DNA of 54,825 nt, counting the filler, from Sphacelaria rigidula (taxonomy: Eukaryota), in the NCBI GenBank assembly GCA_964200075.2. It is 5 parts of 5 records of this genome, joined end to end, with 100 filler letters (N's around TTAATTAATTAA, not from the genome) between each part and the next. Parts side by side here need not be neighbours in the genome. Positions count along the whole stretch, not along the records: positions 1 to 10,885 come from CAXNAA020005735.1; 4 more parts are not named here. The stretch is one strand, 5' to 3'. The notes beneath the pieces were generated by a model. It was not told the DNA's origin. It saw nothing but the letters and a program-made list of their open reading frames with translations, and searched no databases. The translations under genes and the position numbers were made by a program. Shown here piece after piece: positions 1 to 43,717 of the stretch. Numbering within the stretch: position 1 is the first letter of the stretch; each line of letters starts with the position of its first letter.

Positions 1-290
1 TCGAGAGACTGGCTTTATCGATGTTACCAGCATATGCCCAATTTTCCATGTGCCGAAACACCGAGCTGCGGAGAGATTCCGTCGTCTCTTCTTGCTTGTC
101 GCCAACGCGAAGATCGATTTCTCTCTGCCTCTCCTTTTGAACAGGACGCGCCTCTGTGCGCTGAAGAACATGTCGTTGAAATAATAGGGCAATGTTCCCG
201 TCACCGTTACTACTGTTCTCTGCCACACACATGCCAGCAAGGGCGGTGCTGCGGCAATAACAGATATATCCAATTTGAACTTAGGGGGTG

Positions 291-430
291 TTATTCATCG
301 TTGATTTTTGCCGACCTCCCCGTACCCGGGTGTCCGACGAGAACAGCCTGCCACACGCCAGCTGAGGGGGTTGTATGAGAGATCAAACACTTGTAGAAAC
401 CTTTTCGACATGCGGAGTGAAAACAGATAC
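291..430 (-). pseudogene. Possible degenerate P-loop NTPase fragment (Crinkler/RHS-type-like)
   Basis: Minus-strand translation ...RKGFYKCLI...QAVLVGHPGTGRS resembles a hydrophobic strand plus Walker A (GxPGxGKS, here K>R). The frame ends in a stop and no downstream motifs are recognisable. Confidence 0.25.
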
Positions 431-749
431 CTATGGTGGTGACCCAACTGTTGTTAGCGTGGCGCAAAGGCAATGTGCAGCACACGCTGGTCGCGTGAAC
501 AGCTCGGTACAGTACGAGTAGTTTCCCATAAGTAATAACTATTCCGATGTCAGGAGGACGTGGTCACGGTAACAAACTGCATCGAAGTCGCAAGACCTGT
601 GAGAGCTAGAGAGTTTGACTGTTATGATCTGCATCCATAAAATTATAACGGTTCTGAAAACCTGAGGGAAAACGGCTTCCCTGTCCCCCAGCCAGGCATC
701 GATGAACGAGGAAAGACTTTTAAATCTGGCGTGAAGGTCCATAAAGTAC

Positions 750-1026
750 CACAAGATTGCTAGGGTCCCAAAGGTGCCCTGGAGACAGTTAGGACACCAG
801 AGGTTTGATGTAGTGCGAACTCCAGAGGTAAATTTACACTCTGGAGAGTATCGTTTCAGAAAATTTCCCCAGAGGCACCTTTAGTAAAATTATGCGCTCA
901 AGGGAATCATGTGCCCTCTGGCGGCTTCGTCGATTGTCTACTCCAGACGCATCATGAACCACCGGCGGGTATTTAATCCTGAGGGCCGTTTTCCCTCCAG
1001 AGGATGAAAATCACGATAGAGGATTT
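750..1026 (+). mobile_element. Terminus of a TIR DNA-transposon family with CCTC(C/T)(A/G)GAGG sub-terminal repeats
   Basis: Starts CACAAGATTGCTAGGGTCCCAAAGGT, an inverted match to 8207-8232. Contains CTCCAGAGG-type motifs. 976-1026 aligns in direct orientation with 6763-6817. Confidence 0.55.
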
Positions 1027-1059
1027 CCAAACAGGAGCCGGATGGTCGCAAAAAAAGGG

Positions 1060-1322
1060 ATTTTGATAACTGAAATGTTGGGGTCTTGGGTGAAAAAACA
1101 GTTTTGGCGTAAAATCCCTCAAAATTGGTTTTTCACCTAGGTCCCCGACATTTCGGTTGTCAAAATCCAAATTTGTACGGCGTGTAGTAGTTGCCAATAG
1201 CTACCAGCAAGTGAAGAAATGGAAGCATACTTCGAAGATTTGGCGTGGATACAACGATTTCATTTCTCCGGGTTTTCATTCCCAATAAAAGATTCATCCC
1301 CAATTTGTAAAATCCCGTGTTT
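1060..1322. mobile_element. Truncated copy of the foldback MITE at 8600-9061
   Basis: 1130-1322 is clearly homologous to 8866-9061 (TCACCTAGG...AAATCCAAATTT...ATCCCGTGTTT). 1065-1105 matches the inner part of the left arm. Confidence 0.8.
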
Positions 1323-1334
1323 ACAGTAGAAACG

Positions 1335-3750
1335 GTTTCAGCTCCGACTACTCTCGACTGCTTCTTCCCATCCACCGGCGTCCGCACTATGGGGTCTGAA
1401 CTCCTCGCGCTTTGGTTTCCCTTTCGTCAGCCGAGGACGAGATAACCCGGGCATCGAATCCTCGGAAGGGTGAATCGCTTTGCCCTGTCCTGTTGGCACC
1501 AGAAAGAGAAGTACCTGTCCGCCCTAATCGCTGACCAAACGCGGGGCAGGCAACGACGTACGCTTCCACTCGCTGCTGCCACGCTCGCAGTTGTCCTTCC
1601 CCCCGACGATCAGCTTCCAAGGCGACCATATAGGTCTGTCTCTTCGGACATGGTGCGCCTACCTGCGCGGCTGAGACTGCGGCCTGCTCGGTGAGACACC
1701 CAGCTCCGCTTAACAACGGAGCAACGAGCTCCTTCCAAGCAGGAGAGCTCACCAGTACAGCAGTACTCTCCAGGATCAGCGTTGTCAGAGAGGTTGATGA
1801 GAAGAATAACTCGACCAACTTCTTTGGCGACACTGGCTAATTCCGACTCCAGTGTAACCCGATCGATTGGCACAACCCAACTTGTATCCCCTACCAACAC
1901 TTCTGGTTGCACTTCTCCCACGAGGTTGTGGAAAGAACGGCGCCCCGGACACGTACATACCAGCCTGACTCCATTTCTAATCTGGTTTACTCCAACACAA
2001 TCCAACGCCTTCCAGTCCGTATCACCGTATCACCTCTACGAGCTCTTTGGCTGCCAAAATACGTCCTCCACCTGCAACTGGAAAAAGCTATTCGCTGACT
2101 CAACACTCGTAAAGTACTTGGATTCTGCTAGCCCACTATATATGGTCTGCATATCCCTCAAACCGCCGCTGTATGACTCTAGAAGTTCGTTCAGTCCACG
2201 ATAATCTTGACATAGTCGTGAACTACCGTCCGTTCTTCTTTCGAACCGTGATGCAGGCGGCTGCCCATGCTGGCGTCGATCGTACGTGGACCGGGACTAG
2301 CTTGCTAGCGAAACCTTCTAACCTTACGTGTTCCGTTAGATGCAGCGGTCATTGAAGCGTAGCATCGTCTTCCCACGCCACCCCAAGGCTTTTCCACACC
2401 TCATTCAATGCTGCCAGTTCGCTCCCAACAGACAACATCCCCGTCGAGCCGTCTGTGGGCGCGCTTGGCTTGACAGCACAGAAGAGGTCCCACGCTGCCG
2501 AGTCTTCTTGGATCTTGAGGTGGTCGATGTCAACAGCTCCGAGCTTTGGGGAACCGTTAGACACCAACCGTACGCACGGCGCATCCGGCGTAGGCCGAGA
2601 TCCTGATCGCCCTTTGATAGATAGAGTACTTTTTTTTCTCCTGAAAAATTAGCTCCCGAAATAAATTTATAGGATAATCCATCGACCACCCTGACCCATA
2701 CCTTATTTACCCTACACTCTGGGTGGAAACGAGTCAAAATTACCGTTGATCCTAGGATCTTCATCGTAGGTATCCTACTGTCACTAGGGTTAGCAGCCTT
2801 CGAAAATCCTGTTCCTTGTCGTTGTAACTTATTTTCTACATTACCCCGCGTCACTAAAGACCTTCACCAAAGCTTCGATACGTAGCTCCCCCCCCCTGCC
2901 CGGTTGTCCAGTAACACCGTTACTGGTAGGCGGTGGCTACTCTTGCTGCGGTGCCAGATTTAGGCTCATATCCACAGCTGCTGCGCATCGCCCTTCCTTG
3001 CTTCAGCTAAAATGACATTCAATCCCCTCCGATGGTGCCAAAATCCCCTTGTTACGGTATCAACACTTTTTCAAGACTAGATCCCTGGCGGGATACAGCT
3101 TGTGTCGGAGTAGGTTGGACCAACGTTGATCGAACATGACTCCTCGGTGCAGGGCTGCATAATGGCAGCGTGCTCGGCAATTTGTTCACCCTCGCTTGCG
3201 TAGCAGGGGTGGCCCCGGAGGGGTGAAATGACCCATACAATGAACTTGCATGCGTACCCACTGGGTTAGGTGGAACCTAGTATCTGGATCAATGCTAGAG
3301 AGGCGGCGGCAGCGGCGGCAGCGGCGGCAGCGGCACCGGGTATGCACCCTGCTGGTTGCGCCTTGCCTGGGATGGATAACGCTAACGGAGACCCAGATAC
3401 TGGAAGTATCTGCTAAAAGAGCGGAGGAACTACCGGTTATGAAAACTGTTGGTCAAAAGCGATAAGCATTTTTATCTGCGACGCTTGAGCAGCCTGTTGT
3501 TGCTAAGGCGCAAAAAGACTGTTGCTATTGTCGCGGCGCAGAAACACTACTGCAGTTGCAGACGCACAAAAGACTGGTGCTGCGGAGGAGGTGCGGCAAC
3601 ATGCTGCTGCATGGAAAGGCGCGGCAATCTGCTGCTGCATGGGAAGGTGCTTTGACGGGAGTTTGTTGGACGAATCCCGCCGTGTAAAAGGACTGGGCTC
3701 AAGGATTCCAGGGCTTTCCACTCATTTTTCACCGATTTGGGGTTAGCTAT
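1335..3750 (-). mobile_element. Decayed, internally deleted Ty3/Gypsy retrotransposon fragment (protease, RT N-terminus, DNMT-like domain)
   Basis: Protease: VTVLLD/(T)GAGGSYVS (frameshifted, ~2875-2925) and ...KILGST...VRVVDGLSYKFISGANF. RT N-terminus (~2065-2290): RSTPAWAAACITVRKK/DGSSRLCQDYRGLNELLESYSGGLRDMQTIYSGLAESKYFTSVESANSFFQL. Many frameshifts and stops. The 5' boundary is approximate. Confidence 0.8.
1340..2060 (-). pseudogene. C5 cytosine DNA-methyltransferase-like domain (degenerate)
   Basis: Motifs in DNMT order across frameshifts: ELVEVI/DTDWKALDCVGVN (motif II-like), QPEVLVG (motif IV strand, PC absent), TLILEST (motif VI, ENV-like), GCLTEQAAVSAAQVGAPCPKRQTYMVA (motif VIII GxPxxR-like), then KAIHPSEDSMPGLSR...FRPHSADAG (variable-region-like). 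Motifs IX-X are cut off at the MITE. Confidence 0.6.
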
Positions 3751-4094
3751 GTGATACTCGAAACGTTAAACCTGCACGCACGTACCCCATGAATGTAACG
3801 CCAAATTGAAAGAACTACGAATGATTCGTGGCAATGTGTTACAATCTCCATGATTCAAGAGTCAAGAGGGCGGTGTCTGGCGGAAAGTGTTATCAGCCAT
3901 CAACGGATGTGAAGAGCGATGGAACAAGCAACATGGACAGCAGCGCTCCACCGGCGTAAAAGGATAGTGGACAGAAGAAAGGGGAAGAACAAAGGGAACA
4001 GTAATATGACCGGGCAAGACAGGTTCGCGCGTGTGCATTTGGACAGGGTATCACGTGTCGGGACTACCCAGTATAATTTCCTGGACTCCGACCC

Positions 4095-4300
4095 CTTTCA
4101 AACTGTTTGGATACGCATGGGAAATCTTGGCCCCTGTCAACCTGTTCGAACACGCGTGAGAAATCCTGGCCCCCTGTTAACCTGTTCGGACACGCGTGAG
4201 AAATCCTGGCCCCCTGCGAACCTGTTCGGACACACATGGGAAATCCTGGCCTCCTGTCAAGCTGTTCGGGCACGCATGGGAAATCCAGCCTCAGTGTCAA
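4095..4300. repeat. Minisatellite, ~40-bp unit, about 5 copies (further partial copies at ~4550-4610)
   Basis: Recurrent AACCTGTTCGGACACGC(G/A)TG(A/G)GAAATCCTGGCCCCCTG. Confidence 0.85.
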
Positions 4301-6499
4301 CGAGCAATACTACGGTAGAGGTGCACTTTTTGCGCGAAATCTTGTCTGATTCAGGAGCTCCTGAAGATTCTAGATGCACAAGAATATGGGTTAGGGTTTG
4401 CAAATTTATTCGGGATATCCCTAGCACATTGGAATAGTTATCCTGGCGTATTCTCACATATTTCACAAGTCGTGTTGGGCATGAAATAGAGGGCTCCTAA
4501 CATTTCTAACCTCGGAAAATATTTGTGCACCCCTACCGTAACATCCCTCCAACCTGTTCGGACACGCATGGGAAACCTGTCTCCCTGTCGACCTATTCGG
4601 ACAAGCATCGTCTTGGCACCTTGAGCATTCCTCTTCGCCCATTTTCCTGCATGCCATCAAATCCTGCTTGTTCGCTGTGTGGTGCAAGTGTATTTATTTT
4701 GGTTTATACAACTTTCTCTTTCATCCACTCAATGTCCGGCTTGTATGTTAATAAGTTCACAGTATCCACAATAATCATACGAGTCGTTCATTACAAGCCA
4801 GTAACCCTCGTCGATATATTCCCGGTGTAAATATCGGCAAAGGAATAAGTGAAACCCATCGACATCTTGAGATCAGAAGAATGTAGCCCTGCCCCGGGGA
4901 CGATCATAGCGCGCACAGATAGACGGTCATCTTCGAATGGATTGTCAGAGCATGTACACGCGGACGGTCATCTTCGAATTGATTGTCGGAGCGTGCACAA
5001 GTATAGACGGTCGACGGGAACTGACGGAGCATCCGTCTGGTGACCTCATGCAAACACAGTAGCATGCAGCTTCACTCGTAGCCGCTCAATCGTTGTGGAT
5101 TTGGGTTGATTAGCACATTCATGAGTAGCTACATAGTAATTGACAGACTGGTACCCGTAATAATTGTCAACAGACAACTGTTGCCGGCGTCATGCAGTCC
5201 AGTGATCCACCCCTGCGGGTCATAGTAAATAAATTATGGTCAGTTCAGCAGTGCACCTGGACACGATCACCCATGTACTGATAGTCGTGAAATAAACTAA
5301 AAGTACACGGTTGGGTATGATTTCTTCAAAATCAGAGGAGATATCACATAGCCCCGAAGTTGCATACATGTATGGCTCGCCCATACCCTTTGGAGCTATT
5401 CAGCAAGGGCCAAACTATGAAACAGGGGGAACCACTTTGAGGTTACATTCAATTTCCATGACAAAAAAAACATTTCACGCACCAATGACATGTTTCCCCC
5501 CCGACCGGGGTAGGGTAAATACCTCATGCATGCGTTCATTCAAGCTTCCCAATTTCCGTTCACGACAAATCGGCTCACATGGTATCGTGCCTTGTAGCAT
5601 GTGTGCACGACCAGTATGGCACTACGGTTACACAAACAGTTTTCGCGCATTGGCGGACGGCAGCGTAACAATGCTATTCTCTCTTAGTTGCATACACGGT
5701 CATGTATGAGATGCGGTTAGTAGGTGGCCCTCAATCCCAAAGGCATGATCTATCGATCCGGCATTAATTTTAGCAGATGAAATCTCGGGAGTCCCTTTTC
5801 ATCTCTTTCACATGCGACAGCAGTTCATTAACTCACGTCTGCTGGTTAAATACTGCGGTCATAGTTTCACTCATGCAGCACGATCACTACTCCTATAATG
5901 CATGTATGTGTCCTTACACCATATATACTCGAATTAACAGTACATGACAGAGTTGATCTGGGCATCTTCCGCTAGCATAGTCCGATATTTGATGTTCGAT
6001 GGTGATTCGCTACAGTTTGTCCCTACAGTTGGGGTTTTATTAGACCGAGTACACAGTTGGGGTTTTAACGAGGAGATAGTGCAGCCCGTATATATTCAGT
6101 ACAGTTGTCTTGTACAGCCGTCCTGTAACAGCATCACAATCAATAAAACGGTAGCATGTCGTAGAACCGAAGGGTGACATCGTAACCTAATGTGCTGAAA
6201 CACAAGCGATTTTTAATCCAGTGGGTCGCGTCGAATTGGAGTATGTATGGAACAAGCATTGCAGTGTTGCTTCATTTGAGCGTTACTGCAAATTCACGTG
6301 TGGCAAATAGTGTAACAGCAGGCGTGATGTGTGGAGCAGCATAGCGTGGTTCCATTTCAGCTGCATCACACTACCAAATCACACCCTATAGGAACAGCAG
6401 CGCCAGTTGTGAACGAGCCCAACGTTACTCCGTCCCGCAGCAACACACGCGGCCATTCTACGCCCCCCCCAAAATACTCTGTTCCGGTTAACTTTTCGA

Positions 6500-6820
6500 G
6501 TCTCCAGAGGAATTAAACGCCTCTAGAGGGTGCGCGGCCCTCCAGAGGGGTGGGATCGAACGCCTCCAGAGGCTTGCTTTGCCTCTGGAGCGCCGCGCAC
6601 CCTCTGGAGGATCTTGGAGGATGCGCAGCCCTCCAGAGCACCATTTGTTTTGTTACTCTCGAGGGATTCAGACCTCAGAAGTAACTGGAGCATCAGATGC
6701 CCTCCAGAGGGTTTATTTTATGACCGGAACTGAGTATGAAATATCCTCTAGAGGGTAGTTTTATCCTCCGGAGGGTCACTTTACCCTCGAGAGAAAGAAA
6801 ATCGAGATAGAGGATATTCA
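6500..6820 (+). repeat. Cluster of ~10 quasi-palindromic CCTCCAGAGG/CCTCTGGAGG motifs; same family as 750-1026
   Basis: Motif seen repeatedly (e.g. ~6502, 6520, 6539, 6564, 6582, 6601, 6629, 6701, 6745, 6765). The 3' part aligns with 976-1026. Confidence 0.7.
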
Positions 6821-7674
6821 TGGGGGTAGCCGAATGGCCGCGTGTGAAACGCCGAGAGCTTATACTTGAATTAGTAGGAGTTTAACTGATATTTAATGCC
6901 AACCTCGGCTGTATACACCATCCCCCTTCTGGCGTGCGAACGTAATGCGCTGATTTTGGTGCCGACAGTGAAAGCAAGTCATTCGCTACAGACAGGTCGT
7001 CATGTGATCTCGGGGTTGATAAACATAACATTCAACAAGAATGCATGTCGTTTACCTAACAGCCATTCTCCCTAACATCATTACCCATCACACGGCAGCG
7101 TTGTGAAGCTGCGGGGGCATCATGGCCAGCAGGTTCGTGGTAACAGCAATTTCGAGCCCAGCTGGCGTTGGTAAACCAGCCTGAAAAAAGAACACCGTGG
7201 TTTTTCTTCAGTTGAACTGCACTGCAAACTCCCGTGTGGTGAATACAGTAAGCACAAGCTTGACGGGTAAAGGCGGCATAGTGTTGCGTCGCACAGCAGG
7301 AAGCGGACGTACAGCAGCTGTTGCATGAAAATATATAGCAAAGCAGTATAGAGAGTCATGCAATCCTAGCATCCACCGTGACTTCTCTCAACCAGGTCTA
7401 CACGCCAATATTTGACCCTTATGTAGTAACAGTATCCAATCGGACTGTGCACGCATCATCGCCGTTGCTACTTAGCTACTTCCATTTGTATCACTGCTTC
7501 TCTTTCCCATTTGAGCCGCCCTCGGACGCGAGAGTGGAAAATACAGTTGGTAACGTTATATAGATGTTTGGTATATGCCGCTATCACAGAATTGACTTTT
7601 GTAGCGAGTAACGGCGGGCGTACGGGTTAGGAACAACCACACACACGTGGACAAATATAGCACCTTGTGGGGCA

Positions 7675-7850
7675 CGTCTACAGGGTTCAGGGAAACTGTG
7701 CAGTGTTTCTCGCGGGGATTTGACTGTAGGGTGTTTTTTGCGCCACACAGGACGCTGCACAGAGTTTCAGGGAAACTGTGCAGTGTTTCTCGCGGGGGTT
7801 CGGCTGTAGGGTATTATTTTGTGCCACACGGGACGCTTTACAGGGTTTCG
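7675..7850. repeat. Tandem repeat, ~80-bp unit, about 2 copies
   Basis: TCAGGGAAACTGTGCAGTGTTTCTCGCGGGG...CTGTAGGGT...GCCACAC occurs twice. Confidence 0.85.
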
Positions 7851-8149
7851 TCACTCCGTGTGTGTAGTGTTTATTGCTGTTAATATGCTGTACAGTATTT
7901 TTACGCACATACAATATACTCGACCTTGCAGCGCGGGCACAGTACTGGCGAGAAGACAGTCCAATCGTGACAGGGGTGGATGTCGAACTCGAACTGTAGT
8001 GGTCGGGATAAGAACGCACTGAGCATTGAACCACCTATAACGTGTTGTTAACGTGAACATTATGTTTGAATTTCTAATGGATATGTCAAGCAATATAACT
8101 TCAGAAACGAAAACATGAGCACCCTTATTTTGTAATTTAAAATGGTTGC

Positions 8150-8232
8150 CTGTTGGCAACTTTGGGGAAAAGTGCTCTCCCGGGTGTAATTTACCTCTGG
8201 AGTTTGACCTTTGGGACCCCAGCAATTTTGTA
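8150..8232 (-). mobile_element. Inverted terminus of the CCTCCAGAGG-family element
   Basis: Reverse complement reads TACAAAATTGCTGGGGTCCCAAAGGTCAAACTCCAGAGGTAAATTACAC, matching 750-775 and 818-840. Confidence 0.6.
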
Positions 8233-8599
8233 CTTCAATTCACTTATATACTATATAGTATAGACCATGACCCGAGATCCACGCAAATCACCCATAACAA
8301 TAACACTTTTGTTCCCAGCTATACCGCAAAACCCTATATACTGTCTGTAGCAAAGAGCCCGAGGTGGGCATAGGGCTATAGATATACACTGCCGTGGTTG
8401 GGTATGAGGTATTTCTTGTTGCTCCATGGAAACTTGAGCATCTTACACCGTTCCTTTCAGATCCCACGGAATGTCGTCAAGGGACGGGTGGTTTTTGAGG
8501 AAGCAAATCGTCATTTGTAACAGGTGTAAGCCGTTCAAGCAAGAAAATTTCGATTCCGAACAGGGGAGGATGTACTGCTGTACTCCTGAATACTGTTTT

Positions 8600-9061
8600 A
8601 AACACGGGATCTTACAAATTGGGGATGGATCATTTATTGGGGATGGAAACCCGGAGGATTAAAATCTTCGTATCCGCACCAACTATTCGAAATATGGTTC
8701 CATTTCTTCACCTACCTACTGATAGCTATTGACAATTGCTACACGCCATAGAAATTTGGATTTCGAACACCGAAAATTTTGGGGTCCTAGGTGAAAAAAC
8801 AGTTTTGTGGAATTCCGGGTGTCCGAGCGGACGCCAAAATAGTACCGAAATGGTTCCGAAATGATTTTTTTCACCTAGGACCCCAACATTTCGGTGATCG
8901 AAATCCAAATTTCTATGGCGTGTAGCAGTTGTCAATAGCTACCAGTAGGTGAAGAAATGGAACCATATTTCGAATATTTGGTGCGGATACGAAGATTTTA
9001 ATCCTCCGGGTTTCTCATCCCCAATAAATGATCCATCCCCAAATTGTAAGATCCCGTGTTT
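8600..9061. mobile_element. Foldback MITE with ~200-bp terminal inverted repeats
   Basis: AAACACGGGATCTTACAAATTGGGGATGGATCATTTATTGGGGATG... at 8600 and its near-perfect reverse complement ending at 9061. The arms pair from ~8600-8800 to ~8866-9061. Non-coding. Confidence 0.9.
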
Positions 9062-10885
9062 CTACATGTTCTATTTCCAGCCATATTCTGCAAAATACGG
9101 TGTAATTGTTTCTCGTCATATCTAAGCAAGACCATGCCAACGCTTTCCCTGACTGGTTCAGAGTCCCTTTGTATGAGAGAGATTTTATATGCTTCGAAAA
9201 ATTGTGCGATGACCGCCAGCATAGTGTTGTATTGCACTACGAGTGTTAATAATGAGAGCTATAGGATTTCCAGGCAAGAGGCTCACCTACCTGGTGGAAG
9301 CCGCTACATACAGTGTGCAATAGATGGAGCCGTGTCTCTCCCGCACATCTTCTCCTACGAAATGCTGAACACTACTGCAAGTAAGTGATAAAGCGCATCT
9401 TCTGCATGATGTATATACATAGCTGTGCAGAGGTACAAAATGACGCGGGGTGGTTGTATCTGCTGTTGTTTTTGCTACCCCATCAGAAGATGCGGGTTGT
9501 GAATTGAAGAAAACACGGGTTGCACCCACGCAGTACAGCCCATGCACCCCAAAACCAGTTGCCAATTCTACCAGGAAGAAAGTGACCATACAAGGCGTGA
9601 TAGCTGCTTCAGGCTGGATGAAGCACCTCTCATGGGCGCTACTGGCGAAACTACCCCAAGCGTGGGAGTTTTCACCGTCTCGTTGTGTGTGTGTCCAGTT
9701 TTCTTTTTGTCTGTTGCACCCAACTGACTGTATTTCCTCCCAGGGCTGCCAGGAGCTTAGTAGACGTTACAGAAGTGCGGTAGCTCACGCTCTTGTCTGC
9801 GCACCAGGCGAGTATCTCGCTGCTACATTTCTCCTGCTCTTCACTTCGAAAATATGCATGCATGCAAGCGGACAGCACCGTACTTGCGTCGGCGGCAGTT
9901 GCGGGACACGGACGTCGCCCTGTTACGTGTTATGTAGCGCTTAGAGGCACGTCCTTTTGAGAAAACGTCGCACCATGGCGACGGTGGTTTTTCTTTTGAA
10001 CTGCTTATCATCTTGCTTGGGCTGCCGTATAGAAACGTCTGGGTTAGGGTTACATGGCCGAAACTGCTTGCGTATTTCGAGCCAATTGGACCAAACAAAT
10101 GAAATTTCGATGGCGACTTCAATCTCTCCCAAATGATGAACCTCAAATTTGATTCCACGCTGTTCATAGCTACTATTCACAACTGTAGCACAGTAGAGCA
10201 GAACGGGTGTCTTGCCGTCGCGTGAAAACATTTTTTTCAAACTGTCAGCGGACCTTGTCAACCGAAAGATATTTGTCATACGCGCACATAATCTGTGTAT
10301 TTGTGAAGCGCAGTGCTACTTCATCTGAGCTGACTTGCACAGGAGGGGTGCGTACACCCAGCACCCGCTGCGTAGCTTACAAAGCTAGCATCAAGGTGTC
10401 TTACCTCACAGCACAAGGGTGGTGTATAACGATATCTGCGCGGTGTGTGCAGTAAGCCTAGAGCCGCTTCATCACGCGATGCGGAGACGCTGTCAAACAT
10501 GTTGCAGCAAATCGTGCTTGAAACAACTCTTATCTACCCATACACGTGGCTACTCACGGTAAGGGATGACTCTTCAAATACCCGTTATACTTCAAAAAAC
10601 ACATATAAGGCACAGCGATCATAGCTGCACCCCAAACATCGAACTCAGTCGGTTAGCAATAATCGCTGCGCTAAAGCTGTGGACACGCATCTTCGGGTGT
10701 CGTAGGATACGCACAGCAGGCAGCGACTCCAAGCGTACACGGGATTGACCGAGGACCATCTCGTTCCGTTTCACATTTACAGACAGAAAAATGCGTGAGT
10801 CATCCTACGATAGGGGGGGGGGGGGGGGGGGGGTCGGATATCATGGAAGCTGAGGGAGGTGCGTGGCCTGTAAAACACATGCGAT

Positions 10886-10985
10886 NNNNNNNNNNNNNNN
10901 NNNNNNNNNNNNNNNNNNNNNNNNNNNNNTTAATTAATTAANNNNNNNNNNNNNNNNNNNNNNNNNNNNNNNNNNNNNNNNNNNN
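10886..10985. other. Artificial contig spacer
   Basis: 44 N + TTAATTAATTAA + 44 N, identical to the other three spacers. Confidence 0.98.
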
Positions 10986-21870: not shown

Positions 21871-21970
21871 NNNNNNNNNNNNNNNNNNNNNNNNNNNNNN
21901 NNNNNNNNNNNNNNTTAATTAATTAANNNNNNNNNNNNNNNNNNNNNNNNNNNNNNNNNNNNNNNNNNNN
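21871..21970. other. Artificial contig spacer
   Basis: 44 N + TTAATTAATTAA + 44 N. Confidence 0.98.
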
Positions 21971-32855: not shown

Positions 32856-32955
32856 NNNNNNNNNNNNNNNNNNNNNNNNNNNNNNNNNNNNNNNNNNNNT
32901 TAATTAATTAANNNNNNNNNNNNNNNNNNNNNNNNNNNNNNNNNNNNNNNNNNNN
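32856..32955. other. Artificial contig spacer
   Basis: 44 N + TTAATTAATTAA + 44 N. Confidence 0.98.
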
Positions 32956-34003: not shown

Positions 34004-35158
34004 GCACTGGAGAAAACGCAGAAGGCCATCGAAGAGAAAAGGCCGTGGTACGAAGCTGTCCTCCTCCGGGTGGAGACGGCGGAGGCTGCCGCCGGGGAGA
34101 CTACCACCAAGGTGGTCATCGAGGGGTTTGGTCTACTGGTGAATGCAGCCAATATCGATGCCGTGAAGCCCGCCTGTGTTGTTCTCAGTGCTCTGTTCGA
34201 GGCTGTGAAAGGAGCCACCGCTGCACGGGAAGAACTGCTTGACCTCCTGAGCTACTGCGTCTTGATCACGAGTATCGTACTGGACAATGCCCGTGCGGCG
34301 GAGCTGCCCGCGCACATCCAGGCGGCTTTGCAACAGGTGGCAAGCGAGATCACCAACATCCATCAAACCGCGAACCAGTTCGACGCCAAGCCGAACCGTG
34401 CTTTGCCTGGGCGAGGGTTGCGCCTGCACCGCAGGCATAGGAGCAGGATCAAAACGCACAGGACGACTCTTGAGACTATATTGGCCACGGCGACGAGTGC
34501 CGCCGCACTTGCTACAGCTACGGACGCCAGCGCTGTACGCACCATGTTGACCCACTCTTCCGCGCCTGGAGGTATGGCGAGGATTCCGCTTGAAGCGCGG
34601 GCGCGACCTCGAAGTTACGTAGAGCGCACTGCTCTCGTGTCGGAAATCGTTTCTAAACTCACGGCAGCAGATACTAACAGTGCTCCGTACGCACTATTCG
34701 GTATGGGGGGAGTAGGCAAGACAATGTTAGCATCGGCAGTCGTTCGCAACCCAGACATCCTGAAGCACTTTCAGGGAGGGGTCTACTGGCTTGGCGTAGG
34801 ACGAGCTGATGGGACTCAACTTTTAGCTCTCCTGGAGCGGCTAGCCGCTAAGGTAATAGTATCTCCCACAGGTCCGCGATACTTCGACAGCGAGGACGAG
34901 GTGGTTCGCAGCTTGACTGCGGCTGTATTAGAAGATAAGCTGCCCCGCCTGGTTGTGGTGGACGATGTGTGGCAGCGCGACATTGTGGATCGGCTGATGC
35001 TTACGGGACTTCGACTGCTGGTGACCACGCGTGTCCGCGCTGTAGTTGCCATGAACGCGGGGTGCACGGAGGTGGGAAACATGAACCAGGTGGAGGCACG
35101 AGAGCTGCTGAAGTCGAAGAGCGGCGCAGTGGCACTTCCGGAGAGGGAGGCTGACCAG
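34004..35158 (+). CDS. NB-ARC-TPR (NLR-like STAND) protein, large exon: helical N-terminal domain plus NB-ARC core
   Basis: 1155-bp open exon between a TAG acceptor (34001-34003) and a CAG|GT donor. P-loop GMGGVGKT, RNBS-A-like HFQGGVYWL, Walker B LVVVDDVW, sensor LLVTTR. The start-codon exon was not identified with certainty. Confidence 0.93.
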
Positions 35159-35465
35159 GTAGGTACAAGTGTGGCGGCCACTTGTTCACGATGGAGCGTT
35201 TGAGAGGTGCAAGCCGTCCTCATCAGTCGACCGCGAGCACGGTCCTACCCATATCAATGTCTGACGCGATTGCTGATATCTTGTTCGACGCAATAATGAA
35301 CCGATTCACAGAATAAACCCTGTCGCTGTCAAAGTGAGACTGCAAGCTGTATTGTCTTGGTAGTCGATGTTTTTCTATAGTGCGAACTTCCTCTAGACTC
35401 GCCCGACTACATCCGCGGCCTGTGTTGGTATGTCGGCCTCCTCCCTCGTGATGTATCCGTCGTAG

Positions 35466-35780
35466 GTAGCTGAGGAATGCGGGCGGCTGGCGTTGGCCCT
35501 AGCTATTGTAGGATCACTTCCGTGTGTTACTGGAAGTCCAGACTCTGCTCTATCGTGGCAGCGGCTGCACATAGAGATCAAAAAGAAGAAAGCAACCCGA
35601 CTAGGTCTGCAGATGAGCAGAGACATCGCCGACGACAAGTCCAAGCGGTCACTGTATCCTGTGCTGTCCGTGAGCCTGGAAGAGTTGGGTCAAGAGGAGC
35701 AGGACATGTTCCTGAGTCTGGTTGTGCTGACCCGTGGTGTTTGGGCATCAACTGCAATGCTGGCCGCGCTCTGGAAGAAG
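35466..35780 (+). CDS. NB-ARC-TPR protein exon (GLPL-like CGRLALALAIVGS; LSVSLEEL...FLSLVVL...LAALWKK)
   Basis: 315 bp, phase 0, AG/GT boundaries. APAF1-like helical and winged-helix motifs. Confidence 0.9.
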
Positions 35781-36444
35781 GTGCGGTTCATTCGCAAGCG
35801 TCGTTGCATCGGCCACAGACCTCTTGACATACGTGCTACCTGGTGAGGGTTGCGAAATCAGCACCATTTTTACAAGCCATGCCCCATTCCTGTGTAAGGG
35901 GTGTTCTAGTCGGCATGTCCGATGGTTGACATAGCTTGATTCATGTACACTGTGAGCTTACACTTGATTCCGAGGTATCCGGCGCTCATATTTGCCTGGT
36001 ACGGTGAAGCGTTAGGTGTGCCCTCCATGTCGGCAGCAAGTTCACTTCAACGTCAGCCAAGATCAAGCTACCAGTTGTTCGCAGTTGCAATTCAAAAACA
36101 AGCTGAAGGACACCTTTGGATCCACGGCGATTGAAAAAAGAGCTTGTTTTCAATTTTGATGCCGAAGCTAGTTGATCTCAGTGTGGTACTTCTCACCTCC
36201 AGACGTTCTGGGCTTGGCGTACGTCGGTCGGGGGCATGGGTTGAACGTTGGTAAGATGCGAGTCCTCGTCCATGTAGACTATTTACAGTGGACGAGTGTG
36301 AAAAGTAAGAATTCAGGCTTCCGCAACAGCGTTGTGAAGTGATCTTACTGTAAGTAAGAGCCGTCGGAACCGTCGTTTCGTGAAACTTGTAGGATCGCGC
36401 TCGCCTAACACAGACTTGTGTATGGTGACTCGATATCGCTGCAG

Positions 36445-36837
36445 GATGACGAAAGTGCAAAGGAGAACGCTGATTACCTAGCGCAGAATGCACTGTTGCA
36501 TGAGGTGGAAGGCTCCTTTTTCGTGCACGACCTGCTGCTGGATTTCATCAAACTTGAGTGTAGAAGTGAGGAGAGGCATGGGTTGGTCGAGGATGCTGTG
36601 GGGCGCCAAGCGCAGTACTTGAGCAGACTTTCTGTGGTCTGGGAGTTTTTCAACAATGAGGGACTGAGCACAGACGTATACGCGCTGGGTCGTTTGTGGT
36701 GGTCACTGGAGGAACTGGCCGGCAATGAGCAGCTGCAGGTGGAGAGATATAGAGCCAGCCTGGGGGAGTTGGGTCGAGCCGAGTCGACGGACGTGGCCGA
36801 CGCGTATGCGCTCATCGGTACACTGTTTCACCGACAG
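36445..36837 (+). CDS. NB-ARC-TPR protein exon (MHD-like VHDLLLDF; helical linker to the TPRs)
   Basis: 393 bp, phase 0, CAG acceptor and GT donor. Ends in a TPR helix-A-like segment (DVADAYALIGTLFHRQ). Confidence 0.9.
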
Positions 36838-37342
36838 GTGGGTTCTTGGTATGGTTGTCACGGCCATTCTGGCCTTGGGTCAAACCTTTATCAGGAGATG
36901 AGACGGCTTTTGCAAGCTATTGATTTTTGGTGAAGAACGCCCACAGTACGAAAGGTGAAATGTGACCCGAGCAATGTCAAGGTGTTTCCACCGAGAAAGT
37001 GAGGCTCGTCACCACGGTGACTGCAGCCAAGTACATCGCTTAGGCTGGAGGTGTTGTCAAGATGGGTAGTGGTATTGTGAAAGGTTCACACCCTGGACAA
37101 TTCATGGTCAATAGAGGCGAAAGACGAGAAGTGTACTGCATAAAGTATAGGCCTGTTGCAACTATTGCCGTCCGATAGTTGTCGCAGTAGGCCTGTACTT
37201 CACGCAGTACGTTCTTGTGTATTGCAACCATTGACCATATATTGTCCAATGTGTGGAAAGGTTTCGTCCCGTCGAAAATATGTTGAAGCTTTGGAGTGGT
37301 TGATGAGCTATTCGCTATTGCCAATTGGTCGTCGTGACACAG

Positions 37343-37455
37343 TGTGAATACACGGAGGCTAGTACGTTCCGTGGGCCCACCCTATTCGAGAGAAAGCACT
37401 GGGTGTGGAGTATCCACACGTCGCACATATCTACTCTGATGGATCTGAAAGCAGT
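37343..37455 (+). pseudogene. Degenerate TPR pseudo-exon inside the long intron
   Basis: After a CAG: CEYTEAST.../IREKALGVEYPHVA with a frameshift. Same register as the intact 42-aa TPR exons but divergent in DNA sequence. Confidence 0.65.
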
Positions 37456-38512
37456 CCGTTCCGCGTGGTTCGATGTCACAATACTCTCCAAACGATGGTC
37501 CCATTTCGGGCACGGCCACGACTATTCGAAGACTCGAGGTATCGCTTTCCTTTGTGATGAATATTTTCAGCCAAATATCATTTTAATCCGGAAAATAACG
37601 GATTCCCGATGCTTCTGCGCAATAATACGTCGTGCGCGTGGATATCAACCCAGGGTTGCGATTTCCTGCCAAATCCTTGCACAATTCTGATTGTTTACAA
37701 ATGCACCCATATTAGCTGATAGGAAGAATGCCGTTGTCTCCAATTCTTCTCTAGCATATAGTGAAGCATCCAGTCTAACTGTAGACCAAAACGGGGTTGA
37801 GTTTTCCATCTGGCACGTCGGCTGAAGTCCGGGCACACTCTCTCATTGGACATCCAAATCTTGTCTGCCAAACCTTCAAGGTACCAACGTCTACAATCGA
37901 TGCGGCCACTTAGTACGCTCCCTAATGATGTCGGCTTCCCGTTATCGTAGTGCACATCACCCCACTACGGTAGAAGCTGGACGTAGAAGGTTTGGGGTGG
38001 CTGCTGAGCTGACGGGTACATTTTGTGGCCCTTCTGGACTTCTCGCCGTATAAAACAATGACAAAGTACGCGTTTGATTTCTGACAACATGCCATGTAAA
38101 CTGTTTTCAGCGCCCTTTTCCAGGTCGCAACTCAGGTGAACAAGTCGAGAAATCTCTAACGTAGAGCCACATGTGTACCGGCACTCCAAGCTCACGTAAA
38201 CGAGCTTTTTTGGTCCGAAGTTAGGTAATGTTGGCTATTGTAGGGAATTTAGACCGACTACACTGCAGCCAAGGTTTCAAAACTGATCGTAATACATTCG
38301 AGTAATTCAACGGACCATACTCGCCTACTCGGTTCGCAGGATGCAGGGTAGGGAAGCGGTTTCGATATCAGTAACTTAGGACTCAACAATTTTGTCAATT
38401 CTATGAAATGAGGTTGTACACTAAAATGACTTTCAAGCACAAAACACTGTTCCCCCCCCCACTTTCAGAGATGATGCCTGATGACTTTTTTGTCGGCCGA
38501 ATGCCCCCTGAC

Positions 38513-38668
38513 CGCGTAGATACGTTTTCAGCGAGTTTTTCCAACTCTTGTGAGCTAAGAGCGCTGACCGTAACCGTCATTGTCCCTGACATCGCGTAGA
38601 TACTTTTTCAGCGCATTTTACCTACTCTTGTAAGCTAAGAGCGCTGACCGAAACCGTCGTTTTCCCTT
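38513..38668. repeat. ~80-bp tandem duplication inside an intronic repeat
   Basis: CGCGTAGATAC.TTTTCAGCG...CTCTTGT.AGCTAAGAGCGCTGACCG.AACCGTC occurs twice. Confidence 0.8.
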
Positions 38669-40640
38669 ATATTTGATGTCTGAAACTTTGCACGGATATA
38701 CTATGGGTCTACATGACATTTTCGATCAACGAGTCTTGTTGACGTTATGACCTCTTACCGTTTGCCTGGGTTCCGCTGGGTCGAAGTTTTCCCAAGAACC
38801 GTTACACTCCCGAAAAACGGTGAACAAAATCAAGAAGTACAAAAGCTTCTTTCTTCTAGAGTTGCGTCGTGAGCCATGAAACATCTGTGCAAACGTTTGA
38901 GGGCGAACCAACTCCTGGAAACGTCATGAAGTTCTGTAGATGCGTATGTTTAGGCTCGATACGCGTGAGCGAGTCTGTAATTACGGTTGATATTTGGGGT
39001 GACGTATTTTTCAGTTTTGGGACGTTTGGCATGGCTTCTGCCTCCCAATTAGGGTAGATCACCATTACACGAGCTAGACACCTCGTATCATGTCACTGGG
39101 AGGCGTCTCGCCCACTTTTCCGATTCACTTGGCTCCGAGATTTGGAGGATTGCCTCCGGATAAAAACGGGTGAACATAGAAAATGTGGGCACGGTGTGGG
39201 AAAATCTAGAGATCACTTCAGCTTACTGCAGACACCGCATTTTCATGTCTGGCTGTATATTTTTCGGAGGCCATCCTCGAAACCTCAGAGCCAAGCGAAT
39301 CGGAAATTTGGGCTAGCACCCTCTCAGTGAGGTAATCTCAAGTACCCGAGACACGTGACGGCGATATTCCCTGTTTAACCGTAATGCCCCGAGAATGAAA
39401 CTAATCCCCCCAAGAAACAACAGTAAAAAACACCCCAAACGAAACGCTCCCACTCGAATGTTCGAGAGTAATATACCGTTCAGGCGGTAGATTTGTGGAA
39501 ATAATCTTTTTCGCCCATGGACAGTATAAGGCTGAACTGCGCTCTTTCTCCCGACGTATTTCAAAGGACAGGTACAGCATATATCCCCAACTGATGTGCG
39601 GAAGACTTCCCCCCCCCCAAAAAAGTGTCTGTGGTCTATTTCATCACTTTCACGATTCTGTACCAAAGGAGTACCTTCAGGGGCGCAAAACGTGATCGTG
39701 TAGCTTTTATTTACTGAGCCTAAAACTTGATCATGAGCAACGATATCTCCATCGGCACGACGCTGCTCGCGCTTGGAACGTGGGTGATGCTCAGGTCCGT
39801 GCGGTGTGGGTTCTGGGAAGCATATTGATGTCCGTTGACGCGTTGCAACGAATGTTGCTCGTCCTTTCATTTCGCACTGTATTATCCCGCGATTGATGTA
39901 AACCAATGACTGAGTATATTTGGGTGTACGTCATTCGCCAGTGTAAACCCATGAAATACATCTGTGCAGACGGTACTCTGAGACGGCGAAGAGAGGGTAG
40001 GACTTTTCGAAGTTCGCTTCGCAACGTACAACATGAACCCTTTGCGCAGTAGACTGTATCCTTACTAATACAATACCGAAGACCCACACAGGACCGTAGA
40101 CGTGCGCCAAATGATATAACTAGCAGGTTATTGCCCGGGGCGAAGGATTGGGGCGGCTATAAATGCTTTCCCGGTTTCGCGATAAACTTGAAGGTGGAGG
40201 AACATTGTCTAATGTGCAGCTGGTGTCATTTCACAAGTGGTAAAATCGTAGTTTGGAGGAATCGTTAAGACACGTCGACTCCGCTGATGCTATGCTGGCT
40301 GCTATACTGCATCCAATCCATGCAAGACTCAACGGTGCCGACCATCTACGAAACTGCTCTGTGGTGTTATCTCAGTGGGTCCTTCGCGTTTTCATCGTAC
40401 CAAGTGGGTTTGTTTGACGGTCTACGCCGTAACCCTGAAGTATGGCTAGTGCCGGATGTCCAGAAAACGTGTACGGTACAGTATAAACTTATGTCGAAGA
40501 CGAGTCCCTTGGCCTGGAGCGTCTTGATACTACCGTGCGGGTCATCGAATGGATGTCGTGATCTCTTGACTTGAATTCGCTATACTTCGGATGAGATTGT
40601 CACTGACGAACCCTGTCTCCCGTTGTCGATGGAACGCCAG

Positions 40641-40766
40641 AGCAAGTTGGCCGAGGCCGCACGCCTCTACGAGCAGTGCCAGTCGATCAGGGAAAAGGTC
40701 CTCGGCCCGGAGCACCCTGCGTTGGCCGCAACGCTCAACAACCGCGCGCGGTTGTTGCAAGCTCAG
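40641..40766 (+). CDS. TPR exon 1: SKLAEAARLYEQCQSIREKVLGPEHPALAATLNNRARLLQAQ
   Basis: 126 bp, phase 0, CAG|...|GTGAGA. Kinesin-light-chain-type 42-aa TPR. Confidence 0.92.
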
Positions 40767-41062
40767 GTGAGAGCCGGGGCGACGTTGTCGTGGTCTTGTG
40801 TGTCGACGTATGGACGAGATGGTGTGTTGTAGATGTTGTCGCGCTAGTGCGGTGTGCCGACGTTGACTGCGACTGTGCGTTCGGCCAAGCCAACCCGTTG
40901 TAGCTGTGAGCCGTCGAGATCGGGCATGGTAGTTTTGGCATTACGCACACATCGGTCGGCGGCTGCAGACGTTGGCGGAGCGGCGGCCGGAGCGTGTCGG
41001 GGCCGTTGTTGGTCCGACGTTGACTGTTGTGTGGTGGCGGCGCGTCGTGTACTACCTTGCAG

Positions 41063-41188
41063 GGCAAGTTTGACGAGGCCGCGCGCCTCTACGAGCAGTG
41101 CCAGTCGATCATGGAGAAGGTCCTCGGCCCGGAGCACCCTGATTTGGCCACAACGCTCCACAACCGCGCGGGGTTGTTGCAAGCTCAG
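41063..41188 (+). CDS. TPR exon 2: GKFDEAARLYEQCQSIMEKVLGPEHPDLATTLHNRAGLLQAQ
   Basis: 126 bp, phase 0, TTGCAG|...|GTGAGA. Confidence 0.92.
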
Positions 41189-41484
41189 GTGAGAGCCGGG
41201 GCGACTTTGTCGTGGTCGTGTGTGTCGACGTGTGGACGAGATGGTATGGTGTAGATGTTGTCGCGCTGGTGCGGTGGGTCAGGGTCGACTGCGAGTGTGC
41301 GTTCGGCCAAGGCAACCCGTTGTAGCTGTGAGCCGTCGAGATCGGGCATGGTAGCTTTGGCCCTGCGCACACATCAGTCGGCGGCTGCAGACGTTGGCGG
41401 AGCGGCGGCCCGAGCGTGTCGGGGCCGTTGTAGGTCCGACGTTGACTGTTGTGTGGTGGTCGTGCGTCGTGTACTACATTGCAG

Positions 41485-41610
41485 GGCCACTTGGCCGAGG
41501 CCGCGCGCCTCTACGAGCAGTGCCAGTCGATCAGGGAGAAGGTCCTCGGCCCGGAGCACCCTGCGTTGGCCACAACGCTTAACAACCGCGCGGGGTTGTT
41601 GCGAGCTCAG
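41485..41610 (+). CDS. TPR exon 3: GHLAEAARLYEQCQSIREKVLGPEHPALATTLNNRAGLLRAQ
   Basis: 126 bp, phase 0, canonical splice sites. Confidence 0.92.
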
Positions 41611-41903
41611 GTGAGAGCCGGGGCGACGTTGTCGTGGTCGTGTGTGTCGATGTGTGTACGAGATGGTGTGGTGTCGACGCTGTTGCGCTGGTGCGGTGGG
41701 TCAGGGTCGACTGCGAGTGTGCGTTCGGCCAAGGCAACCCGTTGTAGCTGTGAGCCGTCGAGATCGGGCATGGTAGCTTTGGGCCTGCGCACACATCAGT
41801 CGGCGGCTGCAGACGTTGGCGGAGCGGCGGCCCGAGCGTCTCGGGGCCGTTGTAGGTCCGACGTTGACCGCTGTGTGGTGTGGCGTCGTGTACTACATTG
41901 CAG

Positions 41904-42029
41904 GGCAAGTTTGACGAGGCAGCACGCCTCTACGAGCAGTGCCAGTCGATCATGGAGAAGGTCCTCGGCCTGGAACACCCTGCGTTGGCCACAGCGCTCA
42001 ACAACCGCGCGGGGTTGTTGCGAGCTCAG
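41904..42029 (+). CDS. TPR exon 4: GKFDEAARLYEQCQSIMEKVLGLEHPALATALNNRAGLLRAQ
   Basis: 126 bp, phase 0, canonical splice sites. Confidence 0.92.
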
Positions 42030-42325
42030 GTGAGAGCCGGGTCGACGTTGTCGTGGTCGTGTGTGTCGATGTGTGGACGAGATGGTGTGGTGTAGATGTT
42101 GTCGCGCTAGTGCGATGGGTCGAGGTTGACTGAGAGTGTGCGTTCGGCCAAGCCAACCCGTTGTAGCTGTGAGCCGTCGATATCGGGCATGGTAGCTTTG
42201 GCCCCGCGCACACATCGGTCGGCGGCTGCAGACGTTGGCGAAGCGGCGGCCCGAGAGTTTCGATGCCGTTGTAGGTCCGACGTTGACTGTTGTGTGGTGG
42301 TCGTGCGTCGTGTACTACATTGCAG

Positions 42326-42451
42326 GGCAAGGTGGCCGAGGCAGCACGCCTTTACGAGCGGTGCCAGTCGATCATGGAGAAGGTCCACGGCCCGGAGCAC
42401 CCTGCGTTGGCCACAACGCTTAACAACCGCGCGGCGTTGTTGCAAGCTCAG
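42326..42451 (+). CDS. TPR exon 5: GKVAEAARLYERCQSIMEKVHGPEHPALATTLNNRAALLQAQ
   Basis: 126 bp, phase 0, canonical splice sites. Confidence 0.92.
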
Positions 42452-42747
42452 GTGAGAGCCGGGGCGACGTTGTCGTGGTCGTGTGTGTCGACGTTTGGAC
42501 GAGATGGTGTGGTGTAGATGTTGTCGCGCTGGTGCGGTGGGTCGAGGTTGACTGAGATTGTGCGTTCGGCCAAGGCAACCCGTTGTAGCTGTGAGCCGTC
42601 GATATCGGGCATGGTAGCCTTGGCCCTGCGCACACATCAGTCGGCGGCTGCAGACGTTGGCGGAGCGGCGGCCCGAGCGTGTCGGGGCCGTTGTAGGTCC
42701 GACGTTGACTGTTGTGTGGTGGTCGTGCGTCGTGTACTACATTGCAG

Positions 42748-42873
42748 GGCCAGTTGGCCGAGGCCGCACGCCTCTACGAGCAGTGCCAGTCGATCAGGGA
42801 GAAGGTCCTCGGCCCGGAGCACCCTAATTTGGCCACAACGCTCAACAACCGCGCAGTGTTGTTGCAAGCTCAG
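42748..42873 (+). CDS. TPR exon 6: GQLAEAARLYEQCQSIREKVLGPEHPNLATTLNNRAVLLQAQ
   Basis: 126 bp, phase 0, canonical splice sites. Confidence 0.92.
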
Positions 42874-43169
42874 GTGAGAGCCGGGGCGACGTTGTCGTGG
42901 TCGTGTGTGTCGATGTGTGTACGAGATGGTATGGTGTTGATGTTGTCGCGCTGGTGCGGTGGGTCAGGGTCGACTGCGAGTGTGCGTTCGGCCAAGGCAA
43001 CCCGTTGTAGCTGTGAGCCGTCGAGATCGGGCATGGTAGCTTTGGCCCTGCGCACATATCGGTCGGCGGCTGCAGACGTTGGCGGAGCGGCGGCCCGAGC
43101 GTGTCGGGGCCGTTGTAGGTCCGACGTTGACTGTTGTGTGCTGGTCGTGCGTCGTGTACTACATTGCAG

Positions 43170-43295
43170 GGCAAGGTGGCCGAGGCCGCGCGCCTCTACG
43201 AGCAGTGCCAGTCGATCATGGAGAAGGTCCTCGGCCCGGAGCACCCTGATTTGGCCACAACGCTTAACAACCGCGCGGGGTTGTTGCAAGCTCAG
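43170..43295 (+). CDS. TPR exon 7: GKVAEAARLYEQCQSIMEKVLGPEHPDLATTLNNRAGLLQAQ
   Basis: 126 bp, phase 0, canonical splice sites. Confidence 0.92.
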
Positions 43296-43591: not shown

Positions 43592-43717
43592 GGCCAGTTT
43601 GATGAGGCCGCACGCCTCTACAAGCGGTGCCAGTCGATCAGGGAGAAGGTCCTCGGCCCGGAGCACCCTGATTTGGCCACAACGCTCCACAACCGCGCGG
43701 GGTTGTTGCGATCTCAG
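43592..43717 (+). CDS. TPR exon 8: GQFDEAARLYKRCQSIREKVLGPEHPDLATTLHNRAGLLRSQ (gene continues beyond the contig end)
   Basis: 126 bp, phase 0, canonical splice sites. No stop codon before the spacer. Confidence 0.92.

Follow-up and report, generated by a model that had tools for sequence, protein, structure and literature searches.

Results

A Gypsy relic carrying a methyltransferase-like remnant

The window, meaning the whole stretch of DNA analyzed here (54,825 nucleotides from Sphacelaria rigidula), consists of five contigs separated by N spacers, and the contig carrying the Gypsy relic covers positions 1-10885 only. In another piece of the window, an NB-ARC gene has TPR units of 422 bp in tandem, an arrangement typical of Ectocarpus. 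It fits a probable brown-algal host, as do the DNMT2-only repertoire, the lack of CpG depletion, and a Tudor-Gypsy reported to date from Ectocarpus and Tribonema.

The relic is read from the minus strand. Its 5′ non-coding region (3726..7620), either an LTR or an inter-unit spacer, includes a 40-bp tandem repeat at 4086-4325 and has homologous sequence downstream of pol in other contigs. A putative gag-like 5′ coding region follows (2993..3725); it begins with an ATG at 3725-3723, a start common to 12 copies, and the region is covered by 40 of 40 scored matches. Next come an aspartic protease region with a spacer (2280..2992), placed by alignment to fuller copies, and an N-terminal reverse transcriptase (RT) fragment (2068..2279), which is 70-82% identical in amino acid sequence to the RT of two fuller copies, L088 and L087, in frames matching RVT_1. 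By tblastn and blastn against fuller copies, both parts agree with the initial annotation, which had described a Gypsy protease and RT N terminus here. The protease is called by motif only: the frames tested gave no Pfam match, D-T-G-A was read in 7 of 27 protease-motif matches from other copies, and the window has DNRA.

Directly after the RT fragment lies the remnant of a C5-methyltransferase (C5-MTase)-like domain of pol (1353..2085, minus strand), beginning in the tail of motif I and ending shortly before motif IX. It is frameshifted and interrupted by stops, and it aligns by tblastn to P0020, the open domain of another copy, at 58-64% identity (E 5e-66). The Gly-Gly-Gly tail of motif I, part of the SAM-binding loop, is cut by a deletion (2064..2072; GGGRILAAKEL, aligned to GGGSILAAEEF of L088). 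It is followed by the motif IV region, EVLVGDTSW (1877..1903), in which the catalytic-Cys column holds Trp in place of the Arg of most copies, and by the motif VI region, LILES (1765..1779), which retains the Glu of the canonical ENV. The motif VIII region, AQVGAPCPKRQTYMVA, lies at 1621..1668, and the variable or target-recognition region, KAIHPSEDSMPGLSR...FRPHSADAG, at 1374..1481. Both segments had been singled out as DNMT-like and were found on the minus strand as described, in different reading frames. The PC of GAPCPKRQ was considered as the catalytic PC and rejected; it sits in motif VIII and is PY in most other copies.

Beside the point where the copy ends lies part of a MITE-like inverted-repeat element (1113..1323, no strand assigned); a full copy of this element is found at 8599-9061. 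All 29 of the 29 other loci share further sequence beyond position 1353, which reaches integrase where they are long enough; integrase was found in that shared sequence in 19 of 20 longer stretches from the window's subfamily.

Deletions mark the subfamily of the window copy

A DNA search with positions 1340-2060 gave at least 40 matches (40/40 scored, of 102 candidates); the relic is part of a high-copy Gypsy family. The 39 non-self matches showed 82-88% identity across almost all of the query. The junction between RT and the MTase-like domain had been placed at about 2062 and called an internal deletion. It is a deletion; blastn blocks against L088 move its position to 2068..2085, where the two sides overlap by ~17 bases. 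Relative to L088, ~1.25 kb is gone (the C-terminal half of RT, RNase H, a linker, and the first half of motif I). Between protease and RT, at 2279/2280, another ~620 bp has been deleted. The RT junction was spanned in 30 of the 30 loci of the DNA search, window included, and is thus common to the subfamily, which rules against a chimera specific to this copy. Because both segments are missing, the subfamily is non-autonomous, and it spread after the two deletions.

Fuller copies place the domain between RNase H and integrase

A protein search gave at least 150 matches (150/150 scored, of 201 candidates), some of them in subfamilies that are ~60% identical and have long open frames. We examined 20 contigs of these matches, picked mainly for long frames. 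Beside the domain, RNase H was found in 14 and integrase in 19 of the 20 fetched loci of fuller subfamilies. One copy, L083, has a single natural frame of 952 amino acids comprising RT_RNaseH, ~300 residues without a Pfam assignment, Integrase_H2C2, and rve; L088 carries RT, RNase H, the domain, integrase, and Tudor in that order, over three frames. The RT of fuller copies matches Pfam RVT_1, with the motif WLDD in 10 of 11 matches, and the Tudor domain C-terminal of integrase matches PF21743 above its cut-off (E 1.4e-7). The order in fuller copies is therefore protease-RT-RNaseH-[MTase-like]-integrase-Tudor, that is, the Gypsy order PR-RT-RH-IN, with the protease by motif only. No fuller copy examined had RNase H joined straight to integrase.

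Rebuilding the element genome-wide bore out the co-occurrence of the domain with RT, RNase H, and integrase, which the window copy had left in need of intact copies, and did not recover paired LTRs around one element; none of 34 contig stretches of this fragmented assembly contained an upstream/downstream repeat pair. The 5′ non-coding region is found again downstream of pol on other contigs, twice along with the gag start, a pattern suggestive of long LTRs and of copies that are tandem or nested. The contigs of two sequencing runs that we only guess to be RNA cover the element thinly, an observation that says nothing on transcription.

Relatives outside this genome include a Cys-retaining clade

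Profile searches recovered relatives from outside this genome at ~25-35% identity; 3 of the 16 matches of the first outside search (P0009, P0019, and P0014) were dropped from later alignments as spurious or poor. The linkage to Gypsy pol holds in these records as well. P0040 is an intact outside Pol of 1937 amino acids, with RT, RNase H, the domain, and integrase in one frame, and in three others (P0035, P0030, and P0026) RNase H is fused to the domain. Between P0040 and this genome, the domain is 29% identical over 299 amino acids, compared with 40% for RT, 55% for RNase H, and 52% for integrase.

An outside sister clade retains Cys at the catalytic column (GNACC or GNAYC), in 5 of the 14 aligned domains plus the intact P0040, and one member retains EN. 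We refer to these as the Cys clade, and to the domains with Arg at this column as the Arg clade. No close Cys-clade copy was found in this genome; two Cys-clade protein queries gave matches at 25-43% identity only. Viral contigs yielded no relative, and of 244 pattern matches in metagenome contigs none was confirmed.

The predicted fold is that of a C5-MTase

None of the eight window frames searched matched PF00145, nor did the open frames tested from this genome at the Pfam cut-off. Searches of PDB sequences with phmmer and hmmsearch gave no match at E 10, and a word-index protein search with P0020 alone found none among 3279 candidates. The direct Pfam test thus fails, and we base the C5-MTase assignment on structure, on language-model features, and on diverged relatives.

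An AlphaFold model of the P0020 domain, built from 14 transposon sequences only, had a pLDDT of 67.5, with a confident N-terminal half and a poor, low-confidence target-recognition half (residues 204-283, corresponding to the variable region). Its best Foldseek matches in the PDB were DNMT2, DNMT1, and M.HaeIII (E 1.3e-8), and Foldseek against BFVD agreed with a C5-MTase topology. A VIA search of 48,161 chains, run without Foldseek, returned C5-MTases at all of ranks 1-18 (Z 19.0-12.0, model range 1-303), among them M.HhaI (Z 17.0, rmsd 2.9, 195 aligned residues). DNMT3 structures came last among the C5-MTases (Z 12-13), and other SAM-dependent MTases scored no higher than 11.9. In the ESM Atlas, PF00145 was assigned in 30 of 30 matches at 0.95, for both clades, and the outside relative P0017 passes the PF00145 cut-off itself (E 5.3e-5). 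With a transposon profile, 8 of the 10 reference MTases scored higher than every one of 200 shuffles, in a biased set, 3 of the 10 references having been chosen as weak matches to a relative. By alignment with the 10 references, motif regions I, II, IV, VI, VIII, IX, and X occur in canonical order, IX and X weakly, as the initial annotation had noted for its DNMT-like motifs; together with the model, this shows a predicted C5-MTase fold.

The best structural matches come from DNMT2, DNMT1, prophages, and phages alike, at 10-23% identity. A phage collection gave 37 weak tblastn matches (best E 0.04); among the 20 listed, 19 lie in methylase-type loci or in unannotated copies of such loci and one in a structural gene. 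These 37 matches are too weak to name a donor, and a tree for the origin was rejected, identity being too low; a viral or prokaryotic origin of the domain would be compatible with the data.

Catalytic residues are missing from the copies of this genome

Motif residues were compared in an alignment of 10 reference MTases with 14 transposon domains covering motif IV, and were counted in 67 loci of this genome, left from 130 after de-duplication by overlap; the counts are noisy in frameshifted copies, and the motif columns come from alignments at ~17% identity, with an hhalign probability of 56% in one and 20% in another. All 10 references have PC, EN, and QxRxR. The Pro before the Cys column occurs in none of the 14 transposon domains, and the column itself holds Arg in 8, Cys in 5, and Gly in 1. 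Among the 67 own loci, it reads Arg in 59, Trp in 3, Ser in 2, and Gly in 1, with one gap, one locus uncovered, and no Cys; the motif IV Pro is likewise found in 0/67. At motif VI, 58 loci have Glu and one the Asn of ENV. At QxRxR of motif VIII, Gln and the first Arg survive in one locus each and the last Arg in 45. The glycines of motif I (HCGGG or GRGAG) are retained and the Phe of FxGxG is absent; motif X lacks the GN of the SAM site, and the acidic residue of motif II (Asp) is kept. Motif Glu, Arg, and Gly positions are conserved in both the Arg and the Cys clades. The Arg codon, at least two changes away from Cys, is CGG in 17 of 20 members of the deleted subfamily and AGG in 14 of 18 of the fuller ones, a difference between subfamilies that points to an old loss of Cys.

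Covalent catalysis by C5-MTases depends on the Cys of motif IV. In M.HhaI, Cys81 is the nucleophile, and Glu119, Arg163, and Arg165 hold the flipped base. With the catalytic Cys and its partner motifs gone, the domain of this genome is thus predicted to be unable to methylate by the standard covalent mechanism. SAM binding may have been lost too, given the changes in motifs I and X. A Cys-to-Ser M.HaeIII has been crystallized on DNA, to judge from the title of the structure entry.

We found no CpG hypermutation in 40 copies (C>T at CG 0.059/0.075, versus 0.087/0.072 at CC), and the observed/expected CpG ratio in the elements, 0.92-0.93, equals that of GpC; this decay test has little power to reveal methylation outside CG or confined to cDNA. 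Host matches to PF00145 were limited to two DNMT2 exons (2/2 candidates), in an exon-by-exon search that could miss diverged genes.

The domain is constrained, to the level of its spacers

Between subfamilies, domain dN/dS was 0.16-0.24 across all pairs and 0.20 (bootstrap 0.15-0.27) over five disjoint pairs. Its neighbors gave 0.13 for integrase and 0.10 for RNase H (three pairs), and the two flanking spacers 0.18 and 0.29. The protein has therefore been under selection after the loss of Cys, and not more so than the spacers. In the window's deleted subfamily, domain dN/dS is 0.79; this subfamily evolves nearly neutrally, and the window copy is dead.

Discussion

The initial annotation proposed that an LTR element had captured a DNMT. 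The capture stands, in that the domain is integral to a Gypsy pol; the working DNMT that it implied is not supported, with the catalytic residues gone and CpG decay absent. For the copies of this genome, we consider it fairly probable that the domain is a pseudo-methyltransferase kept as a nucleic-acid-binding module beside integrase and Tudor. A Gypsy lineage (Metaviridae-type) with a C-terminal Tudor took up a compact C5-MTase, which its Pol has kept in frame with RNase H on one side and integrase on the other. In the family of this genome the enzyme has been disarmed, as the alignment shows, by Arg at the catalytic-Cys column and altered partner motifs. Most likely the pseudo-enzyme now binds nucleic acid, perhaps flipping bases or binding SAM, and remains attached to integrase and Tudor or within the pre-integration complex, where, together with the Tudor reader, it might help in cDNA binding or in the choice of target DNA. 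The window's subfamily would have spread in trans.

Pseudo-methyltransferases of the DNMT3L type have the C5-MTase fold without the catalytic PC and act in a non-catalytic role; they are host genes and partners of an active DNMT. The domain described here resembles them in its predicted fold lacking the catalytic PC, and differs in that its host has no DNA-type DNMT match.

The main weakness of the functional reading is the spacer-like constraint. A dN/dS of 0.20 that is indistinguishable from that of the spacers means that constraint alone is no proof of a binding function, and it fits, within error, a once-active capture that persists as a folded polyprotein spacer, kept in frame without a function of its own. 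The MTase-like domain also diverges fastest in the comparison with P0040, and the window's subfamily lost the N-terminal part of the domain and still spread, though in trans. Such a passive passenger is possible if somewhat unlikely. Against it, ~300 residues have been kept at 29% identity between clades, their motif regions all in order and their fold recognizable, the same motif Glu, Arg, and Gly positions are conserved in both, and no fuller copy examined has dispensed with the domain by joining RNase H directly to integrase.

It is less likely still that the domain remains an unorthodox enzyme, methylating or otherwise modifying cytosine in the cDNA or RNA of the element. The retention of Cys by the outside clade, with EN in one member, would suit such an activity, and known retrotransposon DNMTs are described as methylating CG de novo (PMC5890265). 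Set against this are the lack of Cys in every own locus, the want of any close Cys-clade copy in this genome, the absence in all members of the Pro before Cys, and the lack of CpG decay, with the limits of that test for non-CG or cDNA-only methylation. This reading is more plausible for the outside Cys clade.

Two other explanations are very improbable. An accidental link, with a fragment of a host or viral MTase gene nested in or assembled beside a Gypsy relic, could be imagined from a window junction that is a deletion and an assembly fragmented into 27,214 contigs, but it is refuted by single natural frames joining RNase H, domain, and integrase, both in this genome and in independent records from outside it, and no relative turned up in viral contigs. 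Nor does a generic Rossmann or other SAM-dependent fold, homologous to no C5-MTase, seem at all credible: own copies do lack Pfam and PDB sequence matches, but C5-MTases all stand above other SAM MTases in a structure ranking that covers residues 1-303, the relative P0017 matches PF00145, and the profile, on its biased reference set, placed most references above every shuffle.

Links between DNMTs and reverse transcriptases were reportedly recognized early, by Iyer, Abhiman and Aravind in 2011. DNMT-bearing retrotransposons are already known; what is new here is the slot, the clade, and the disarmed state. In KnitGypsy-Dnmt3 of Klebsormidium nitens, a C5-MTase also lies inside a Gypsy Pol ORF and is under purifying selection, with a reported Ka/Ks of <0.2 next to the 0.20 found here (PMC5890265). 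According to the same source, that domain is of the DNMT3 type, with conserved key residues and in a methylating host, whereas the catalytic residues are lost here. Unlike KnitGypsy-Dnmt3, our domain is missed by PF00145, and DNMT3 structures are its lowest C5-MTase matches. SymbioLINE-Dnmt and SymbioDIRS-Dnmt3 of Symbiodinium likewise are retrotransposon-borne C5-MTases, but they belong to LINE and DIRS elements, have conserved key residues and demonstrated activity, and occur in a host with heavy CG methylation, as described in PMC5890265; the retention of key residues is reported there for its retrotransposon DNMTs in general.

EpiLTRs and the Chloro-Ochrophyta DAM-LTRs (bioRxiv 10.64898/2026.05.21.726589) are, like the element here, Gypsy-like and combine methyltransferase with chromatin-reader domains. 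The Chloro-Ochrophyta DAM is placed between RT and integrase, the slot of our domain, but is an adenine MTase and not of the C5 type. The EpiLTR DNMTs, from Cymbomonas and Euglena, are given as sister to DNMT4 and occur with DAM and a chromodomain. The words brown, stramenopile, and Ectocarpus are absent from the main text of that preprint. An opinion article (PMC6338049) treats DAM- and DCM-bearing retrotransposons together and lists Stramenopiles, naming no cytosine example in the part available. As far as these accounts extend, the DNMT3- and DNMT4-related captures they describe belong to another clade and occupy another position than the present one.

The nearest known element, and probably the lineage to which ours belongs, is Gypsy-10_Ec32 of Ectocarpus (Repbase Gypsy-10_ES; PMC12477816), matched by description only. 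Like our element, it is described as having a Gypsy pol that ends in a Tudor domain and as having given rise to numerous deletion derivatives, and a homolog is reported in Tribonema minus. It is 11.5 kb long with 636-bp LTRs, whereas the element here has no delimited LTRs. Unlike ours, it is described without a methyltransferase domain (PMC12477816); the two mentions of methylation in the main text of that paper concern a Sola DNA transposon and histone enzymes.

Brown algae have been reported to lack DNA methyltransferases except DNMT2 (PMC13076208), and the preprint by Denoeud places the loss of DNMT1 after Discosporangiales. The census in that preprint, as described, searched predicted proteomes by BLASTp and required at least 30% identity, and the survey of retrotransposon DNMTs relied on PF00145 (PMC5890265); both approaches would miss the domain found here. 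Brown-algal reports, as far as their available text goes, do not include such a domain (PMC13076208, the Denoeud preprint, PMC12344493, and PMC3145265), and we found no earlier description naming this one in the literature covered, most subscription papers lying outside that scope.

One can envision a broader history, which we put forward as speculative and rather doubtful as a whole: a Tudor-Gypsy lineage captured a C5-MTase at a time when brown-algal ancestors had CG methylation, and retained it as the host lost DNMT1; the branch in this genome became a catalytically dead DNA reader steering integration, and activity may persist in the GNACC branch, which keeps Cys. If true, the GNACC branch would give a clade reported to be devoid of them a DNA-type cytosine methyltransferase, hidden from Pfam and BLAST censuses. 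In the kelp Saccharina japonica, 5mC of 1.4% has been reported (PMC6916402); if the Cys clade is active and brown-algal, it would be a candidate source of this trace methylation. The conserved, disarmed version could serve as a natural test of other uses of such a capture, and the Arg and Cys clades would form a matched pair for assays.

Variation among copies of the retrotransposon

Between protease and RT, the copies of the methyltransferase-bearing Gypsy family differ. Residues 153-236 of P0040, the intact 1937-aa Pol of an outside relative, give a weak, below-cut-off match in Pfam to the dUTPase-like family PF04797 (E 0.0046). Loci L087, L098, and L099 have a matching region between protease and RT, and it is deleted in the subfamily to which the window copy belongs. 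This stretch is possibly a second captured domain.

The tandem arrays of the retrotransposon also vary. One consists of 40-bp units (window 4086-4325) and has grown to about 1.7 kb on contig C2620 (L237); the other, of 88-bp units, lies immediately 3′ of the pol stop in other copies. On contigs C10309 and C4529, the sequence 3′ of pol continues into a second gag start, which suggests tandem or nested copies. The retrotransposon may have a split-repeat layout like the one reported for KnitGypsy-Dnmt3 (PMC5890265).

At the break in the window copy (positions 1340-1353) there is a short inverted piece. Other copies have the corresponding sequence some 30 bases beyond this point, at the site of a small inverted repeat, so that a hairpin-linked rearrangement is possible. 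A MITE-like element whose terminal inverted repeats are long is found at 8599-9061 and, in part, at 1113-1323, and further copies lie inside or adjoining the retrotransposon in L051, L052, and L039.

Other features of the window and genome

The five contig pieces of the window are unrelated to one another and are separated by filler spacers (N / TTAATTAATTAA / N; 10886-10985, 21871-21970, 32856-32955, and 43841-43940). A second Gypsy pol (50767-54824, plus strand), encoding RT, RNase H, and integrase, is unrelated to the methyltransferase-bearing element; the roughly 370-aa Pro/Thr-rich spacer between its RNase H and integrase yielded no Pfam domain. Two exons of the host DNMT2 sit on separate contigs (L031:1273-1692, plus strand; L032:1402-1785, minus strand). 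An NB-ARC gene with TPR units (34004-43900, plus strand; PF00931, E 1.2e-16) has eight 422-bp tandem units 3′ of the NB-ARC, each with a TPR-coding stretch, and looks similar to the candidate immune receptors with exon repeats in brown algae.
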